A DNA stretch of 38,469 nt. Origin: a virus (Duplodnaviria; Caudoviricetes). The notes under the pieces are model-generated. The model did no database searches and had not been told where the DNA came from. It saw only the letters and a program-made list of their open reading frames with translations. This document shows, one piece after another, positions 2,275 to 38,306 of this stretch; position 1 is the first letter of the stretch; each line of letters begins with the position of its first letter. The translations under genes and the position numbers were made by a program. Location: positions 1 to 38,469 of IMG/VR virus record IMGVR_UViG_3300037045_000087. One strand, written 5' to 3'.

Positions 2275-4902
2275 TTAATATCTCCACATAAGGTTTGCCG
2301 AGTTTGCGTTCCACATAAGTGTTGAGCCTGAAGAGTTCCACATATAGTCGGCTACGTCTCCGTAATAGAGTGTCGCCCAGGGGCCTCTGGCCGCGCCCAT
2401 TGCCGCCACCCTGACGATGGTTGCGTTTCCGTAAATGGCCGTGGCGATACAGTTGGAGGCCGAGGGCTCGTTTGTACGGGTCCAGTTCACGCCGTCGCTG
2501 GACTGCTCGACCAGATAATAGTCTGCCCAGGGTGATGGCTCCCAGGATAAAAGCATCCGGGTGGGGTCTGTGGCTACCGATCTCCCGATGAGGCCCCGCA
2601 GGGATGGGGCCAGCTTGAAGCCCTCCAGTTGGCTGGTGGGCGGGGTCGGTATGATCTGGCCCGTGTCGATGGTGTGGACGGCATCGTCTTCGTTGACGGC
2701 CTCGATCTCGACCTGGTTGAGGCTTCGGGGGCGAATCGAGATGACCCTGGCCCGGAGATATACGGAGGCCCCCCATCCGAACGAGATATGGGTCCGCTCA
2801 TGATCCAGGCCTGTGCTTGGGGTGATCTCTGGCGCGGAAAGGAGCGTCACCGTCAGGTCGGAGGGGCCCTTTACGCACTGGTACGGACCAACGAGAGATC
2901 CGTTTTTTTTCCGCAGTGCGATGTAGTGAGTCTGGCCCTCCTCCCAGGTCAGGGGCTCTGAGAGTGTCGCCGTTAAGGTTCCGGCATCCCAGGCCACGAT
3001 CTCGCCGTGCTGCCCAAAGGCTGGCATGTCGTGCTGAATTGCGATGAGGTCCCCAGGCGAGATGAGAAAGCCCTCCATCTCCGTCGAGAAGGTCAGGAAC
3101 ATCCTTCGCCAGGCGTTCGACCCGGCATGGTAGAGCCCTTCCTTGAAAGCCTGCTCCCGGCCCGTGATCCCGAAAAGCTCCAGGGTTGCTGGCTTCATTT
3201 CGAGAGAGGCTGGAACTTTTGCCCGGACTGTTCTTTCTGCCCAGACTGAGGCGTCGAAGTATTTAACGTCGATACAGTCTGCCGAGTCCTCTGTGGGCAG
3301 GACGAAGCGCATCGAGAACGACCCCTCGACGATGTTCCTCTGGCTGAAAAGGGCCACGGGGAGCGTTTCGGCCTGGTCCCGGTAAACGCGAAGGGTTCCG
3401 GCCTGGAGGTAGTGGCGGGCGCGACCTGTTGCCAAAATCTTTGCAATGGCTGTCCAGGCGTCCATCGTGTTGTCGAATCTGGCGTTGAACTTGTCCCCTC
3501 TGAGGGCCCAGGCCTGGTCGAGGGCCAAGAAGGCTTCAAGGTCGATCATGCTGTCCGTGAATCCAATCTCTTTGGCCGTATAGACGGCTGCCCAGGCGAT
3601 GGAGGTTGTCGGGATCTTGCTTGTCCATGCCGTGCCGCTCCAGGTCTGGAGCTTGCGCGTGGCGATGACGTTGATCTTGCGGGAGGAGAGGCTCGAAAGC
3701 TGGCTGGAGGCCCGCATAATCAGGGCGATGTGGGTCGTGTCCCCATAGTCGCGCTGGCCCCTGATGTATCCGCGCAGGCCTGCCCAGACGATGTTGTGGC
3801 CGTATCTCGATCCGGTCTGCTCCGTGTTCGTCCTGATGACCCTGGCCTTGTATCGACCGGGGGCCAGGGCGACCTTCTGCGAAAACCTCTGGGGGGTTGA
3901 GGTGGACCCGGAAAAGGTTCTGGTGACAACGGTTGCCCAGGACCCTATTTCGGTTCCGTTGTTGTCGATCAGGCAAACCTGGCCTTGCACGGAGATCGAA
4001 ACCGAGGAAAGGCTCCCGTTGTCCTCCGCGTAATACATCCCGCGAGGGGCTACGAAGTCGAACCCGATGAAGTTGATCTCTGACCCTGCCGGGTTGACCA
4101 CGAACGCGCCCGTGTACGTATTGTAGGCCATTGCCTGGCCTGCGACCTCGGTGGATGTCACGACGTTGGCCGGGAAGAGGGTCACGGGCTGACCTGGCCC
4201 TACGATCTCGTAGGTTACGTCCGAAAACTCGCTGATCGGGGTGTCCTCAATCCTGATGGCTTCGATGGAGTATTCGCCACGACCAATGCACAAAAGCGAG
4301 TATAAAAACTGCTCGTTGCCGCTGTACTCTTGATAGGGAAGTGCCCCGTAGTCCGGGTAAGCCAGCATCCGGCCAAAGTGCTCTGGCACTGCCTGGCCGA
4401 GCCTGGCCGCGTTGCCCTGGGCTTGTATGCTGTATGTCGGGGATGGCGCGGCCGCGTTTGCCATGCCCCCCGCTGATGGCAGGGCTTGTGCCGGAATGAG
4501 GGCGTTGACCAGGGCCGAGCCGACCATCATGACGCCCGCTGAAAGCATGGCTCCGCCAAAGGTCCCGGCTGCGAACATGGACCCCGCAGGCGCGAGGAAC
4601 GGAACGGCGATGGAGAGGGCCACCACGGCCAGCATGGCGATGATCCTGACCGGGTTCGAGCCCCCGCCTCCTCCCTGGGGGAGTGCTTCAACGTCGACGA
4701 AAATGAGGACCTGACCGCGTAGCACGACCAGGTTCCAGTCCTTCCGCAGCACGGGCCTTCCGTCGAGAATAGCCACATAGGGCCTGGCCCATTTTGGATC
4801 GAGCGAGGCGATGCTTGTCTCCTCGACCTTGGTGATCCTTCTTCGTTGTGGGCAAAGGGCGTGGTCGATAAAAATCGCGGTTGCCTGCTGGTGGTCAGTC
4901 AT
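2275..4902 (-). CDS. Tail tip / host-specificity protein (lambda I+J-like fusion, TipJ family)
   Basis: 875 aa; N-terminal ubiquitin-like part plus hydrophobic segment, NAARLGQAVPEHFGR, PGDLIAI and a C-terminal FN3-like segment; position in the tail module. Confidence 0.85.
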   Translation of the reverse strand: MTDHQQATAIFIDHALCPQRRRITKVEETSIASLDPKWARPYVAILDGRPVLRKDWNLVVLRGQVLIFVDVEALPQGGGGGSNPVRIIAMLAVVALSIAVPFLAPAGSMFAAGTFGGAMLSAGVMMVGSALVNALIPAQALPSAGGMANAAAPSPTYSIQAQGNAARLGQAVPEHFGRMLAYPDYGALPYQEYSGNEQFLYSLLCIGRGEYSIEAIRIEDTPISEFSDVTYEIVGPGQPVTLFPANVVTSTEVAGQAMAYNTYTGAFVVNPAGSEINFIGFDFVAPRGMYYAEDNGSLSSVSISVQGQVCLIDNNGTEIGSWATVVTRTFSGSTSTPQRFSQKVALAPGRYKARVIRTNTEQTGSRYGHNIVWAGLRGYIRGQRDYGDTTHIALIMRASSQLSSLSSRKINVIATRKLQTWSGTAWTSKIPTTSIAWAAVYTAKEIGFTDSMIDLEAFLALDQAWALRGDKFNARFDNTMDAWTAIAKILATGRARHYLQAGTLRVYRDQAETLPVALFSQRNIVEGSFSMRFVLPTEDSADCIDVKYFDASVWAERTVRAKVPASLEMKPATLELFGITGREQAFKEGLYHAGSNAWRRMFLTFSTEMEGFLISPGDLIAIQHDMPAFGQHGEIVAWDAGTLTATLSEPLTWEEGQTHYIALRKKNGSLVGPYQCVKGPSDLTVTLLSAPEITPSTGLDHERTHISFGWGASVYLRARVISIRPRSLNQVEIEAVNEDDAVHTIDTGQIIPTPPTSQLEGFKLAPSLRGLIGRSVATDPTRMLLSWEPSPWADYYLVEQSSDGVNWTRTNEPSASNCIATAIYGNATIVRVAAMGAARGPWATLYYGDVADYMWNSSGSTLMWNANSANLMWRY

Positions 4903-21408: not shown

Positions 21409-22271
21409 TATGCCCTCGCCTTTTTGAGCTCCTCGCGCAGGATAAGGGGGACGGCGTTGCGCCAGGATACGCGGTGGTGAATCCGGCGGTGCTTGTGACC
21501 CATCGAGCTGATCTGGACACAGGAGGGGGCGAACATGACCGTGTAGAACGACTTCACATAGGTCCCTTTGTCCAGGTAGAGCTCCGTCATGCCGCCTTTG
21601 TTCTGCTGCGTTGACTTCTGGACCAGGCCCAGGTTCAGGACCGTGAAAAAGAGCTCCCCGCGGCCTCCCTGGGTGACATAGGTGTTCACGTCCTCGTTGA
21701 TCCTGCCCGCGAACCGGATGGGGCGGTCTGTGGCGCAGATAAAAGAGTTCATGCACTTGCGCTTGGTGAAGGCTGATGCGGCCGAGGAGGCTGACCCTCC
21801 GAGAAAGTCCCCTCCCTGGGCCATGGCTACGCTCTTGATCGGGGTGCTGCGGTGGAGGTCCACCAGGGCGTCGAAAACCCTGTCCAGGTTGTGAATGTTG
21901 CGGTCGATGTACTCGAAACGGGCGTTCTTTTTGTAGAAAAAATTCGTGTAATCATCGTCGAGTTGGATGAAGTAATCGAGGCCGAGCTCCTGGGCGATCT
22001 CGAAGCTGGCCGTCCTGGCGTAGATGATGGCGCGGCGGTCCTGGAAATTGTCCCCCTCGTCTATCTTCCTGGCGATGGCCTGCTTGTCGAAAATGTGGAC
22101 CTGGTCCCCGAAGACGCGGCGATATTCCTCCAGGGTCTTGTCCTCGTTGTCCACCACGATGACCACGCGGCCCGTGTAGCCGTGCCGCCGAAGCGAGTTG
22201 AAGGTCACCACCCTGTCGGGCCTGCCGTGGGTCAGAATGAGGGCTGCGAAGCTGCTATTCCTCATCGCCAT
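21408..22271 (-). CDS. GT-A fold glycosyltransferase, GREB1/TET-JBP-associated (TAGT)-like; candidate DNA-modifying enzyme
   Basis: ILTHGRP N-terminal strand, QLDDDY (DxD) and GRINEDV motifs. Confidence 0.75.
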   Translation of the reverse strand: MAMRNSSFAALILTHGRPDRVVTFNSLRRHGYTGRVVIVVDNEDKTLEEYRRVFGDQVHIFDKQAIARKIDEGDNFQDRRAIIYARTASFEIAQELGLDYFIQLDDDYTNFFYKKNARFEYIDRNIHNLDRVFDALVDLHRSTPIKSVAMAQGGDFLGGSASSAASAFTKRKCMNSFICATDRPIRFAGRINEDVNTYVTQGGRGELFFTVLNLGLVQKSTQQNKGGMTELYLDKGTYVKSFYTVMFAPSCVQISSMGHKHRRIHHRVSWRNAVPLILREELKKARA

Positions 22272-23034
22272 GGTCTGCCTCGTATGCTCCTGCCACTTCC
22301 TGGAAAAACTGCGCGAAGCCGTTCTCGATGGCCTTGTCGAAGTCGATGATGACCAGGGCCGACCGCTCCATGAGGTCCTGAGTCTCCTGGTCTGCGTGGG
22401 CGTAGAATTCTGCGATGTTCCGGTAATCGAAAACGACATGCCGATAGGCTGCCAGGGTCAAGAACTGCTTGACCTCGTCCGGGATGCTGGAGGCCTGGAC
22501 CTGGTCCGCGAGTTTGCGGGCCTTGGCTGCGTCGAAAAGGTCCTCGACCTTGGGCTTCTCCCCGGTGGGCTCGTAGATGGGGGCCTCGATCTTCTGCGTG
22601 TAGATGTCCTCTGCTGACCCTTCCCCTGGGTTGATGTCCGCCAGGAGGCCGTCGAGCTCCTCTTTGTCGAAACCCGTGTAGGCCAGGTCGAAGTTCATGG
22701 CCTGGAGCTCCTCCAGTTCCACGCGCAAGAGCTCCTCGTCCCACTCTGCCCAGTTCGCGGAGCGGTTTACGAGGATGCGGAAGGCTTTGATTTGGGCCTC
22801 GGTGAGATCATCGGCCAGGATGACGGGGACAGTCTCCAGGCCGAGCTTTTGGGCTGCCTTGAGCCTCAAATGCCCGTCCACGATGAGGCCGTCCGACTTG
22901 GCCATGATCGGGAGCCGGAAACCGAACTCCTTTATGGCCCCGGCCATTTTGTCCACCTGCTCGTCGTTCTTCCTGGGGTTCCGGGCGTAGGGGATCAGCT
23001 TTTCGATGCCCCATTCCTGGATTGTCAAACTCAT
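22255..23034 (-). CDS. ParB/Srx N-terminal domain fused to an uncharacterised helical C-terminal domain
   Basis: LIPYARNPRKN, IKEFGF, IVDGHLRLKAA and AEWDEELL motifs; the C-terminus lacks methyltransferase motifs. Confidence 0.85.
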   Translation of the reverse strand: MSLTIQEWGIEKLIPYARNPRKNDEQVDKMAGAIKEFGFRLPIMAKSDGLIVDGHLRLKAAQKLGLETVPVILADDLTEAQIKAFRILVNRSANWAEWDEELLRVELEELQAMNFDLAYTGFDKEELDGLLADINPGEGSAEDIYTQKIEAPIYEPTGEKPKVEDLFDAAKARKLADQVQASSIPDEVKQFLTLAAYRHVVFDYRNIAEFYAHADQETQDLMERSALVIIDFDKAIENGFAQFFQEVAGAYEADHGDEE

Positions 23035-27492: not shown

Positions 27493-28346
27493 TGCAGGCT
27501 CCTTGTTGCGCGTATCTTGCGCATCTCTTCGGCGTCTTTTGCGGCCCTGGCTTCCGGTGTCATGTCCTGGCGCATGACGATGACCTTGTCTTCCCACCTT
27601 CTCCCCGAGATCCAGCCTTGCGCCCATTTCGGGGTATTGCCGCTTGCAATGACGGTCTCGCGGTTTGCCGCCTCTGCGGTGGCCGCTGTGATAATCTCTT
27701 CAACGAGGGTGTCGGTCAGGATGGGAATTTCGATCCAGGCGTCAGCGGCTTCGGCTTTGCCCTTGGGATATGCGAATGCTGACCAGAAACGGTTGAAGGC
27801 CTCCAGGCGTTTGCCCTTGAGCTTGCGCTTTTTCTTGGTCAGGTAGAAAGGTTCAGACCCCTGAGAGTGAACCTCATCGCCCTTGGCGTGAGGAATATTC
27901 TCTTCTGTCTTTATTCTTTCATTCTTAACTTTCTTGTCTTTCTTGTTTGTGTCCGTTTGTTGTTCGCTTGCTGTCCGCTTGCTGTCCGCTTGCTGTCCGG
28001 CCTGCTGTCCGGCCTGCTGTTGTTCGGCCTGGTAAGTGTCCCAATTTACAATGGTAATCACGGTGAATTTGTTGTTCGGTCTGGTGTCCACAAATTCGAG
28101 CATTTTCATCTTTTCTAGCGTCCTTGCAAACTTACTTGGTGAAATTCCAAGCTCCGTTGCGGCTGCGTTTCTGCCGGAGATGAATTGCCCCGCTTGAAGG
28201 TGTACGACCTGATTGCCGACAATCTGTTTTCGTTGTTTGTGTGTTGCTTTGAACATGGCCCATAAAAAAAACTGGCAGGCCCCTGGATCTTGTAAGATCC
28301 CGGAGTCTTCCAGTTTTCTCCAAACCTTGACATAGCCCCGGTGCAT
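27489..28346 (-). CDS. Phage replication initiator (replisome organiser)
   Basis: GYVKVWRK, GQFISGR, TVITIVNWDTYQ, FNRFWSAF and W.SGRRWED motifs; internal iterons. Confidence 0.88.
   Translation of the reverse strand: MHRGYVKVWRKLEDSGILQDPGACQFFLWAMFKATHKQRKQIVGNQVVHLQAGQFISGRNAAATELGISPSKFARTLEKMKMLEFVDTRPNNKFTVITIVNWDTYQAEQQQAGQQAGQQADSKRTASEQQTDTNKKDKKVKNERIKTEENIPHAKGDEVHSQGSEPFYLTKKKRKLKGKRLEAFNRFWSAFAYPKGKAEAADAWIEIPILTDTLVEEIITAATAEAANRETVIASGNTPKWAQGWISGRRWEDKVIVMRQDMTPEARAAKDAEEMRKIRATRSLQ
27895..28020. repeat. Putative replication origin: iterons next to an AT-rich tract inside the initiator gene
   Basis: GCTTGCTGTCC x3 perfect (27966-27998), two GGCCTGCTGT(CC) variants to 28020, T-rich tract at about 27895-27950. 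Confidence 0.75.
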
Positions 28347-28939: not shown

Positions 28940-29599
28940 ATGGTGTTTGACATGAAAAACATGAACGAAGTCAGATCGCGCCTTGAGGAACTAAGTAAAA
29001 CGGCATTTAATAGCGTGAATGATATGGCCGCAAAGACAGGGGTTGAGCAAAAATCCCTTTTTAGGTTTCTCCAGCCTGGGTCCACGGCTGGCCTGTCTCT
29101 TTCTACTTTTTTTAAGATCCTCGAATACTTTGGTGGACGTATTTCGTTTCCCGGAGATGAGCGTCCGCAGGTCTGTGACATGGGCGACTATGCCATGGTG
29201 CCCAAGGTCCGGGCGAAACTTGGCGCGGGATCGAGCCTCGTCACAGACGGAGAACAAGAGGGGCTATATGCCTTCCGAAAAGACTTCCTTCGGCGCATTG
29301 GTCTAGACGGCAATGGGGACCTTGCCCTTTTTGATGTGATTGGGGACAGCATGGACCCAACAATACAGCACATGGATACAGTGCTGGTATCGAGAAGGGA
29401 GACAGACCCCGTGAGCGGCCAAATATATGCGATCCGGGTTGATGATGAATTGCTGGTCAAGCGGATACTGAAGGAACCAGGAAAGCTGGTTGTAAAGTCT
29501 GATAATCCCGATTATGGGACCTTTGAAATAAATATTGCAGAACCGTCTGGAAGTGTCGAGATTATTGGAAGGGTGCGCTGGCAAGGGCGTGTTTATTAA
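28940..29599 (+). CDS. cI: CI-like repressor (HTH plus S24 autopeptidase)
   Basis: N-terminal HTH; VIGDSMDPT (Ser) and LLVKR (Lys) motifs. Confidence 0.93.
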   Translation: MVFDMKNMNEVRSRLEELSKTAFNSVNDMAAKTGVEQKSLFRFLQPGSTAGLSLSTFFKILEYFGGRISFPGDERPQVCDMGDYAMVPKVRAKLGAGSSLVTDGEQEGLYAFRKDFLRRIGLDGNGDLALFDVIGDSMDPTIQHMDTVLVSRRETDPVSGQIYAIRVDDELLVKRILKEPGKLVVKSDNPDYGTFEINIAEPSGSVEIIGRVRWQGRVY

Positions 29600-29612
29600 A
29601 CAGGGGGGGGCG

Positions 29613-30119
29613 ATGAAATATGTTTTGATTTTTTTATTGTTTTTTTCCGCAACAGACGCGCTGTGTGCAAATGTTAATGGATTCAGAGGAATTCATTGGG
29701 GTGAAAATGTAGAAAAAAGATCCAGTGAACTTATATTCATAAGCGAAGACAACGAGCTTGTAAATGGCAAGGTTTATGTTCGAAGGAATGATGAAAGGCG
29801 AATTGGTGGGGCTGTGCTTGAAAAAATAGAGTATGTCTTCATTGAAGATAAATTTTATTCAGTACGAATTTTTGTGTCTTCTGTTGAAAACTTTGAAGAA
29901 CTGAGACTAGCAACAACTGAAAAATTTGGACAAAAATTTAGTGTTGATCAAAATAAAAACTCTATTTCATGGGAAGACGATGGCAACACAGCCGTGTCTA
30001 TGTATTACTTTCCCATGAGCGAGTCCGGACTTCTTGAAATAACAAGCTCCGCAATGGTTGGTTCGGAAAAGCGAAAATCACAGGAAAGGGCCTCAAGTGG
30101 AGCGAAAAACGATTTTTAG
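29613..30119 (+). CDS. AT-rich exported protein downstream of cI (lysogenic conversion candidate)
   Basis: Signal peptide MKYVLIFLLFFSATDALCA; visibly lower GC than the flanks. Confidence 0.75.
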   Translation: MKYVLIFLLFFSATDALCANVNGFRGIHWGENVEKRSSELIFISEDNELVNGKVYVRRNDERRIGGAVLEKIEYVFIEDKFYSVRIFVSSVENFEELRLATTEKFGQKFSVDQNKNSISWEDDGNTAVSMYYFPMSESGLLEITSSAMVGSEKRKSQERASSGAKNDF

Positions 30120-35517: not shown

Positions 35518-36479
35518 GCGACGAAACTGCACTCGCAACAATAGGGCCTGAAACGGCCCTTTCTTTTTTCTCTGAGGGCCAGGGCGTGGAGCTCCTGGTC
35601 GAGGCTGTCCGAAACAGGGCCCTGGAGCTCATGCCCGCGGATCTGGATCTGACCACGGCCAAGGGCCGCGCCGAACTGGTGTCTGTGGCCTACAAGGTAG
35701 CCCGGACCAAGTCCGCCATTGACGATGTGGGGAAGGCCCTTGTCGCCGAGTACAAGGCGATCCCTGCCCGGATTGACGCCACCCGGAAGAGGCTGCGGGA
35801 CGAGCTCGATAACCTCAAGGCCGAGATTCGGAAGCCCGTGACCGAGTGGGAGGAAAAGGAGGCTGGAAGGGTTCAGGCCATAAAGGACCGGATCGACGGA
35901 ATACGCGCCCATTCCGGGGCCAGGGCCGAGTCCTCCGAGGAAATCATGGATCTGTTGAAGGGCGTCCAGGCCCTCCAGATTGACGACTCTTTCGAGGAGC
36001 TCCAGGGCGAGGCTGCCCTTGCCAAGGATGCTGTCCTGTCCCGGCTGTTTGAACGCCACGCGGCTGCCGTAGGTCGGGAGGCTGAAGAGAAGGAACGCGT
36101 CGAGAAGATGCGCGTCGAGCAGGAGGCCAGGGCCAAGATCGAGGCCGAAAAAAAGGCCGCCCTGGAGATCTCCGAGGCCGAGAAGCGAGAAGCCCAGGCC
36201 CTGCTTGCCAAGGAGAAGGCCGAGCGGGAGGCCGCCCAGGCGAAGGCCGATTCCGAAAAGAAGGCCCTGGAGGCTGTTGAGGCCGAAAAGCGCAGGGTTG
36301 CCCTGGAGGAGGCCAAGAAAAAGGCCGAGGAGGAGGCCCGGACCAAGGATGCGGAGCGACGCTTCCAGGTCCATTCCGAGATCCTGGAGGATCTGAAGGC
36401 CGTTGAAAGTGTGACCCCGTTCCTGATCCTGGAGGCGATCCGCGATGGTCGCGTCCGTCACCTGAAAATTGAATATTAG
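35514..36479 (+). CDS. Phage coiled-coil protein (A/E/K-rich)
   Basis: DLTTAKGR..L.SVAYKVARTK, IRKPVTEWE and terminal HLKIEY. Confidence 0.75.
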   Translation: MSDETALATIGPETALSFFSEGQGVELLVEAVRNRALELMPADLDLTTAKGRAELVSVAYKVARTKSAIDDVGKALVAEYKAIPARIDATRKRLRDELDNLKAEIRKPVTEWEEKEAGRVQAIKDRIDGIRAHSGARAESSEEIMDLLKGVQALQIDDSFEELQGEAALAKDAVLSRLFERHAAAVGREAEEKERVEKMRVEQEARAKIEAEKKAALEISEAEKREAQALLAKEKAEREAAQAKADSEKKALEAVEAEKRRVALEEAKKKAEEEARTKDAERRFQVHSEILEDLKAVESVTPFLILEAIRDGRVRHLKIEY

Positions 36480-36490
36480 CGAGGCAAACC

Positions 36491-37075
36491 ATGGAGCGAA
36501 TGGCCCTGAAATTTATCGGAACTGGACCGATCCTCATGCACAGTGATCGACTTGTGAACAGGTTCGACCCTCTGGCGAAAAAGTTCTCCGCGATCAGTGG
36601 GAAGAGAAAAAAGACAGATGACGACCATGAACAACTGGCCCGGATTGAGTGGGAGGGTGGGCTCTATCTCGACGATACTGTTGGCCCCTTTCTGCCTGGG
36701 AGGATGATCAAGTCCGCCCTGGTCGGGGCTGCGAAAAAGACGAAGGACGGCCCCAAAGTCAAGTCCGGTGTGCTGATTATGACCGACAAGGCCCCGCTTG
36801 AATATGACGGCCCCAGGACCATCGAAAAGCTCTGGAAGGATGGCCGCTTTGCTGATGCCCGGAGCGTTGTTGTTCAGCGGTCCAGGATTATGAGGTGCCG
36901 CCCGATCTTCAACGGCTGGTCTGCTGCGTTCGAGGTTGTGTTTGACCCTGCCGTAATTGACCGCGCCGACATTGTGAGGATCTCGGAAACCTGCGGGGCT
37001 CTGGTGGGAATAGGGGACTATCGCCCCGAAAATGGCGGCGACTTTGGCCGCTTCTCTGTGGAGGTTCTCAAATGA
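36491..37075 (+). CDS. Stand-alone minimal RAMP/Cas7-like protein; candidate effector of the adjacent GGY-NN array
   Basis: FIGTGPILMH first strand, PFLPGRMIKSAL (compare Cas7-group PxIPGSSxKG), RCRPIF..W...FEV and the C-terminal Gly loop GIGDYRPENGGDFGRFSV. Confidence 0.7.
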   Translation: MERMALKFIGTGPILMHSDRLVNRFDPLAKKFSAISGKRKKTDDDHEQLARIEWEGGLYLDDTVGPFLPGRMIKSALVGAAKKTKDGPKVKSGVLIMTDKAPLEYDGPRTIEKLWKDGRFADARSVVVQRSRIMRCRPIFNGWSAAFEVVFDPAVIDRADIVRISETCGALVGIGDYRPENGGDFGRFSVEVLK

Positions 37076-37524
37076 GCGATGCCCCGATCAGGTTGAACGA
37101 CCCCGTACTGTTCTCCCTGGAGCGATTCGCGGAAGAGGGCTTCACCTTTGGCGACGTTATTCCGAGGGCCTGGTTTGACGAGTGCTTTGGGATTGAGCCG
37201 CCCAGGACCGTGGCCGAGGCCTACGATGCCCAGGTCCTCTACATGAACCTGATGGGGGCCTTCCGCAAGCGGCTCCTGAACGACAGAAAAATGGCCCTGC
37301 GGTCAAAGCCTGGAGTGGGCCAGGAGATTGTCCGCCCCTCGGAACAAACGGCGTGGGCCGTAAATGAGTTTCGGGGGGCCTTGACCCTGGCCGTTGAGAA
37401 GGCCCGCGACCGACTGAAAAATATCGAACTCAGGACCCTGACAGATGAGGAGAAGCGGGCCAACGCGGACGCGATAGCCAAGCTGTCCTTTTTTGCCCGG
37501 AAGTCCTCCAGGGCGTTGCCGTAA
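37072..37524 (+). CDS. Hypothetical protein translationally coupled to the RAMP-like gene
   Basis: ATGA overlap; 150 aa; its stop codon abuts the array. Confidence 0.75.
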   Translation: MSDAPIRLNDPVLFSLERFAEEGFTFGDVIPRAWFDECFGIEPPRTVAEAYDAQVLYMNLMGAFRKRLLNDRKMALRSKPGVGQEIVRPSEQTAWAVNEFRGALTLAVEKARDRLKNIELRTLTDEEKRANADAIAKLSFFARKSSRALP

Positions 37525-37525
37525 G

Positions 37526-37837
37526 TTTCCCGCGGCTTGGTGATGTATGGCCTGGCGCGGCTAGGCGATGCGCGGCCTGGCGTGGCGAGGTTGATCCTGG
37601 GCATGATCTGAAAAGGCCCGAATTTTCTCATGGCGTTGCGTGGCAGGGTCCGGTTGGGCTCGGCAGGGCGCGGCAAGGACTATTTTTCCCTAGGCCTGGC
37701 AAGGCACGGCCTGGCGTGGTGGGGCGAGGCAAGGCAAGGGTCCTGGGCATGACGGTAAAAGGCCCGACTTTTCCCAAGGCCAGGACGGGCGCGGCTTGGC
37801 AAGGCGCGGCTTGGCGAGGCTTGGCAAGGCGAGGTTT
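37526..37837 (+). ncRNA. Array of four GGY-NN pentamer tracts; candidate guide-RNA array
   Basis: Tracts at 37534-37593, 37632-37676, 37693-37737 and 37778-37837, each preceded by TTTCYC-NN. Linker TCCTGGGCATGA-N4-AAAAGGCCCGA at 37595-37621 and 37741-37767. Confidence 0.8.
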
Positions 37838-37865
37838 TCTTTCACAACAAAAAATCGAGGTAAAT

Positions 37866-38306
37866 ATGGCTGGAAGTCTGAACAAGGTAATCCTGATCGG
37901 CCGCCTGGGGCGCGATCCTGAAGTCCGTTACACGCCCCAGGGCCAGCCTGTGGCTTCCTTCTCCCTGGCTACGGATGAGTCGTACAAGGGAAAGGATGGC
38001 CAGAAGGTTGAAAAAACGGAATGGCACAAGGTCGTGGTCTGGGGAAAGCAGGCCGAGTTCTGCGGAAAATACCTCTCCAAGGGCCGCCTGGCCTATGTTG
38101 AGGGCAAGCTCGAAACCCGGAAATGGACCGACAAGGACGGGGTGGAGAAGTACACCACCGAGATCAAGGCCGACAGGGTCATGGGGATGGACTCCAGGCC
38201 CGAAGGACAGGCCCAGGGGCAGGCTGCGGCGGCTGGTGGATACGATAAAAACTATGGCCCCGCCTTCCCTTCTGAACCGTCCGGGATGGACGATGCACCT
38301 TTTTAG
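37866..38306 (+). CDS. ssb: Single-stranded DNA-binding protein
   Basis: LNKVILIGRLGRDPEVRY, TEWH and VEGKLETRKW motifs; DDAPF tail; GAGG RBS. Confidence 0.97.
   Translation: MAGSLNKVILIGRLGRDPEVRYTPQGQPVASFSLATDESYKGKDGQKVEKTEWHKVVVWGKQAEFCGKYLSKGRLAYVEGKLETRKWTDKDGVEKYTTEIKADRVMGMDSRPEGQAQGQAAAAGGYDKNYGPAFPSEPSGMDDAPF

Follow-up and report, generated by a model that had tools for sequence, protein, structure and literature searches.

What is encoded by four tracts of five-nucleotide units, each a near-constant GGY triplet followed by a variable dinucleotide (NN), in front of the ssb gene of a phage? The DNA analyzed, hereafter the window (the whole stretch of 38,469 nucleotides), is a linear virus record that is about 51% complete. 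It comes from groundwater and is a temperate phage, with genes for an integrase, a CI-like repressor, terminase, capsid, and tail. The tracts are located in the recombination region, where exonuclease VIII and RecT are followed by a gene of unknown function, two small genes, the array, and ssb. VIPR, a CRISPR-related system, is described in several 2026 preprints (10.64898/2026.04.26.720920, 10.64898/2026.04.26.720927, 10.64898/2026.10.15.759431), and a further preprint deals with it (10.64898/2026.10.21.760802). Because the upstream gene matches the solved Vipr protein, the four tracts very probably form a VIPR guide array carried by the phage, placed behind vipr and a vap1-like gene (Table 1). 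Systems of this kind have already been published, and the window locus adds one more member.

Table 1. Features of the putative VIPR locus and its 3' boundary (window coordinates)
Feature	Position	Strand	Remarks
vipr	36491..37075	+	194 aa RAMP (Cas7-like) protein; phmmer match to PDB 36pp; phrog_4652
vap1-like accessory gene	37072..37524	+	150 aa; overlaps vipr stop; phrog_5926
Guide tract 1	37534..37593	+	12 GGY-NN units
Predicted H-type pseudoknot, copy 1	37594..37621	+	stem 1 AUC/GAU, stem 2 UGGGC/GCCCG; likely 3' tail of guide 1
Guide tract 2	37632..37676	+	9 GGY-NN units
U-rich linker, 16 nt	37677..37692	+	between tracts 2 and 3; without pseudoknot; 5-nt phase shifted by one base
Guide tract 3	37693..37737	+	9 GGY-NN units
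Predicted H-type pseudoknot, copy 2	37740..37767	+	stem 1 GUC/GAC, stem 2 UGGGC/GCCCG; likely 3' tail of guide 3
Guide tract 4	37778..37837	+	12 units; without pseudoknot behind; ends 28 nt before ssb start
ssb (context; 3' limit of array)	37866..38306	+	PF00436, E 6e-39

The tracts as written in an earlier note on this DNA agree letter for letter with the plus strand. Among the 42 units, the triplets are GGC (32), GGT (6), TGC (2), TGT (1), and GGA (1); 38 are exact GGY, and the rest are three TGY and one GGA. The note had placed the information in NN and proposed to check this by the entropy per position. The values for positions 1 to 5 are 0.37, 0, 0.81, 1.93, and 1.91 bits, that is, near-fixed in the triplet and near-maximal in NN, which is the published VIPR code. 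The note neither named VIPR nor tied the tracts to the two upstream genes. Scanning of both strands revealed no tract of nine units elsewhere in the window, and none arose in 300 order-3 Markov simulations of it. Recounted in the published YNNGG framing, each tract gains one 5' unit and tracts 1 and 4 drop their last unit, which gives 12, 10, 10, and 12 units. These lengths fall within the 9–16 YNNGG units of published VIPR tracts (10.64898/2026.04.26.720920), with variable NN and an array near vipr.

The array is no assembly artefact, as far as contigs show. A single contig from run X1, which may be the source of the window, covers positions 36300–38206 with zero differences. Contigs from run X2, which belongs to a different study, cover 37213–37627 with no difference and 37642–38214 with one, leaving a 14-nt hole within tract 2. 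Both runs come from groundwater studies. Among the listed sequencing runs with this phage there is no RNA run, and run X3 has only a small share.

The protein evidence begins with Vipr. The window protein matches the solved SUSP1 Vipr (PDB 36pp) over residues 3–193 (phmmer E 4.3e-32), and the G-loop, thumb, and clamp residues are mostly kept: H17, R39, K82, G87, R138, D177, W178, and R179 of SUSP1 correspond to H17, R39, K82, G87, R137, D176, Y177, and R178. The exceptions are K33 and K88, which are aligned to S33 and P88. According to the structural preprint (10.64898/2026.04.26.720927), mutations of five SUSP1 residues abolish or reduce silencing, including D177, R138, K82, and R39, and these four of the five are retained in the window Vipr. 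The same source describes K33 as essential in SUSP1, so the serine found here is a point against a simple transfer of function; residue 33 is also variable among close relatives. The protein encoded directly behind vipr resembles its counterparts at the same position in Felixounavirus Andreotti (25%, E 8e-12), LESphi2 (34%), and Medea1 (27%), and 12 of 18 related loci have a tblastn match to it behind vipr. By position and homology, vipr and this gene are a putative two-gene operon with a vap1-like accessory gene. Both frames are intact, and neither protein matches a Pfam family. A single-sequence structure model of Vap was poor (pLDDT 50) and was excluded as evidence.

Linkage between vipr and GGY-NN tracts extends to relatives. 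Vipr relatives numbered 363 at E ≤0.001 among 538 candidates, and 135 among annotated phages. Eleven viral, 4 genome, and 3 annotated phage loci were fetched, and removal of the duplicates L006, L023, and L024 left 15. All 15 non-redundant loci have GGY-NN tracts on the vipr strand, compared to none of 113 control loci that had been fetched for different purposes. The 45 related tracts (534 units) have entropies of 0.24, 0.48, 1.10, 1.91, and 1.98 bits. Compared in register, a related tract and a window tract never agree at more than four NN units, so the expectation of the earlier note that related phages would keep GGY and diverge in NN held. Its further expectation of conserved leaders failed, as the spacer motif of the window is in none of the related loci, and the published model makes this long element a 3' tail that belongs to the preceding tract, not a leader.

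Two of the related loci have unusual tracts. The closest relative among the fetched loci, L001 (59% Vipr identity), has very regular tracts of 18 and 21 units (2860–2949 and 4026–4282) with internally repeated NN triplets and short U-rich linkers; these look like slippage expansion and not like copied targets. In a Nitrococcus MAG (L025:3548–4138), perfect tracts reach 23 units, longer than the published 9–16, and their tails are nearly identical.

The spacers between the window tracts are 38, 16, and 40 nt long, and the two long ones have a common 28-nt element that begins no more than 3 nt after the end of tracts 1 and 3. A pseudoknot is predicted behind these two tracts only, and tracts 2 and 4 have short U-rich linkers. 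A U-rich run precedes each of the four tracts, and another lies behind tract 4. An exact-pattern scan of IMG/VR found the element in one other contig, L129, a low-GC phage fragment (G001) with three copies on the minus strand (starts 3316, 3027, and 2725). These copies lie between small genes, each just upstream of a ribosome-binding site. There is no GGY-NN tract in the 4.8 kb fetched from L129 and no vipr in its 10.7-kb record, which is about 20% complete. Across the five copies in the window and L129, 37 of 37 cells pair, with one compensatory change per stem; 20 of 500 shuffles reach the same pairing, and slid controls pair at most 51%. This is suggestive of a conserved H-type pseudoknot, with the structure drawn from the same five sequences. 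A sixth, intergenic copy occurs in Rhizobium phage RHph_I1_23 (MN988556; L132:600–625; blastn E 4), where both stems are kept by eye despite further changes and no GGY-NN tract is seen in the 341 bases read beside it. The tract tails of Andreotti appear by eye to have the same H-type arrangement with an A-rich third loop, longer stems, and an unrelated sequence. Rfam searches of the window and L129 gave nothing meaningful, and the element belongs to no Rfam family. When spacers and guides are folded as single strands, the result is at shuffle level; the method is blind to pseudoknots.

The closest functional models differ from the window in part. Like the type II VIPR of the Escherichia phage SUSP1, the window has a phage-borne vipr and vap1-like gene with a GGY-NN array of four guides behind, a pseudoknot-type element 3' of tracts, and mostly retained contact residues. 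It differs in that its Vipr has about 36% identity to SUSP1-like Viprs and does not keep K33, no guide lies upstream of vipr, and the phage is temperate and likely infects Desulfovibrionales. Its pseudoknot is shorter (28 nt vs the roughly 40-nt SUSP1 tail), unrelated in sequence, and present at two of four tracts. The tail of published type II guides is called invariable (10.64898/2026.04.26.720920), whereas in the window a pseudoknot is predicted at tracts 1 and 3 only, with no structured tail predicted for tracts 2 and 4. The Viprs of Pseudomonas prophages are closer (51% identity to LESphi2, OQ594955) and also belong to temperate phages, and LESphi2 has the vap1-like neighbor mentioned above. 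The G-loop tyrosine Y177 of the window corresponds to Y176 of P. fulva in the structural preprint (10.64898/2026.04.26.720927). In contrast, the prophage systems of LESphi2 and Medea1 (MW862109) have longer tract tails that start with GGGCTG and are not the window pseudoknot. Class 1 CRISPR-Cas effectors are similar in that a RAMP protein (Cas7) coats the guide RNA, as the VIPR preprints describe. Unlike in Class 1 systems, no CRISPR array was seen in the window, no cas genes were found among the 44 window proteins scanned against PHROGs, so that vipr stands alone, and specificity is split into dinucleotides.

An organism name is attached to three of the 120 best SSB relatives, in each case one from Desulfovibrionales (Desulfomicrobium sp., Desulfomicrobiaceae, and Desulfovibrionales bacterium; 66–69% identity). 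Judging from this one gene, the phage likely has a host in Desulfovibrionales.

According to the VIPR rule, NN pairs match the target as NNx, with one base skipped (10.64898/2026.04.26.720920). A codon model was built from 6795 codons of 21 window genes. The best of the six phase and strand options was codon positions 1–2 for all four NN strings, in sense for tracts 1, 3, and 4 and antisense for tract 2. The summed codon score was matched by 0 of 20000 draws of background dinucleotides and by 15 of 20000 (0.075%) draws with the strings' own base composition. The bias is what guides taken from coding sequences would show if they pass over the wobble base, but part of it may reflect a scaffold that structurally prefers some dinucleotides. 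Within the window, the best skip-1 matches for tracts 1–4 are 15/24, 13/18, 13/18, and 16/24. No self-target at 80% was found in the window (best 72%; the record is about 51% complete), and published VIPR guides are likewise without a self-target at this level (10.64898/2026.04.26.720920).

External targets were sought with exact 16–20-base seeds of the decoded guides. Six IMG/VR scans returned 0, 11, 16, 52, 13, and 16 loci, and one metagenome scan returned 3. The best whole-guide scores were 21/26, 20/22, 20/22, and 21/26 for tracts 1–4. Several of the loci pass the 80% cut-off of the VIPR paper, yet were picked by seeds, and no credible target was found among the 111 loci from the seven scans. 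None of the candidate target loci compared is similar to the window by blastn. Of the three metagenome matches for tract 1, two were rejected, because they lie antisense in a housekeeping gene and skip codon position 1; we take this gene, recognized from its sequence, to be RNA polymerase beta-like. A tract 2 match at the end of a 91-aa gene (L099:1764–2039) agrees at 20 of 20 YNNGG positions, antisense and with the wobble skipped. It was neither accepted nor rejected, being near chance level (13 seeds × 1/256, about 0.05) and in a phage contig of 35% GC compared to 60% in the window phage. Among 401 Pseudomonadota genomes, a set outside which the likely host group falls, no credible tract 1 target was found; the single 21/24 match is antisense in a small gene, in a phylum that is not that of the likely host. 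This blank says little, because the likely host group is outside the genomes searched.

As a control, a guide of the Vreelandella locus L023 was searched in 251 family genomes. Four genomes had a match at 18/20, compared to one for the reversed pattern and none for skip-2, and three of the four sit in look-alike stretches. These stretches are in three family genomes (L136:1354–2907, L137, and L138), and the L136 match lies inside a 517-aa gene, in sense and with the wobble base skipped.

Guides that are fewer or bounded differently from four tailed vrRNAs are compatible with VIPR. In such a layout, the pseudoknot would cap tracts 2 and 4 at their 5' end or mark a processing site between guides, or a single long RNA would contain both tract 2 and tract 3. 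We regard this as a realistic possibility, short of probable. It would account for a pseudoknot that follows tracts 1 and 3 only and for the U-rich run ahead of all four tracts, and L001 has a similar 21-nt U-rich linker between two tracts without such a pseudoknot. The L129 copies, which closely precede a ribosome-binding site and start codon, would also fit a 5' role, but at least one is close behind the stop of the preceding gene as well, so the copies favor neither side. The near-abutment of the window element on tracts 1 and 3 argues for a 3' tail, as do the tails of Andreotti, a member of the SUSP1 clade, directly 3' of its tracts. The cryo-EM paper also puts the SUSP1 pseudoknot at the 3' end (10.64898/2026.04.26.720927).

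A decayed or inactive cassette, in which genes and repeats are real and silencing is lost, would agree with the replaced K33 and with the lack of a target in the sets searched. We consider it quite improbable, because both frames are intact, nearly all triplets are exact GGY, residue 33 varies in close relatives too, the array is unchanged in the second-study contigs (apart from the 14-nt hole in tract 2), and the target search did not include the likely host group. The earlier note had also argued against a slippage microsatellite and a protein repeat, and neither reading stands. Tandem Repeats Finder gives weak signals at periods of 10, 15, and 25, and a mechanical frame with a GTG start (37716–38306) crosses tract 4 into ssb. 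However, the SSB domain begins only with the ATG at 37866, downstream of the tracts, and neither slippage nor a coding frame agrees with fixed positions 1–3 beside near-maximal entropy at 4–5, with four tracts in different phases, or with the constant linkage to vipr. The chance that either explanation is correct is negligible.

For the guide array thus preferred, a mechanism can be outlined from sequence features and from SUSP1 and P. fulva. The array would be transcribed with the early recombination operon (exonuclease VIII, RecT, vipr, vap, and ssb) and its RNA cut into about four vrRNAs. The U-rich runs before each tract may be the processing sites, and the pseudoknot would serve guides 1 and 3 as a 3' cap. 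By analogy with SUSP1 and P. fulva, Vipr would coat the guide with one subunit per GGY, NN pairs would read double-stranded target DNA two bases at a time, skipping every third, and binding would repress transcription without cutting. Vipr filaments may thereby silence the DNA of competing phages, prophages, or satellites, with assistance from the Vap1-like protein. One weak promoter-like site was found inside vap (9/12; 0.4 expected) and no terminator-like site behind the array; neither result was given weight.

VIPR is a recent and very compact programmable DNA-binding system, for which new orthologues are useful. The window locus leaves the general picture of VIPR unchanged; what it contributes is a member with a mixed layout, likely from a Desulfovibrionales phage. 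Follow-up would be most worthwhile for this layout and for the free-living pseudoknot. A tentative and rather doubtful idea is that guide tails were built from a free-standing pseudoknot, used by other phages between ordinary genes, and put on every second guide only. If true, this would show the origin of the vrRNA tail and that capped and uncapped guides can alternate within one array. A narrow literature search of main texts, in which only the VIPR preprint came up, found no pseudoknot tail on alternate guides in print. As the pseudoknot is short and occurs free in other phages, the origin of the tail and the need for it are directly testable.

Other regions of the window phage also have features of interest. 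A minus-strand gene at 21411–22439, between ParB-like and terminase genes, matches phrog_842 (E 3.5e-75), which is annotated as beta-glucosyl-HMC-alpha-glucosyltransferase. An 11-nt tandem repeat of 6.3 copies (27950–28031) inside a DnaD-like replication gene likely represents origin iterons. Behind the CI-like repressor lies a low-GC gene of 194 aa (29535–30119) without a PHROG match, the start of which resembles that of a secreted or membrane protein.
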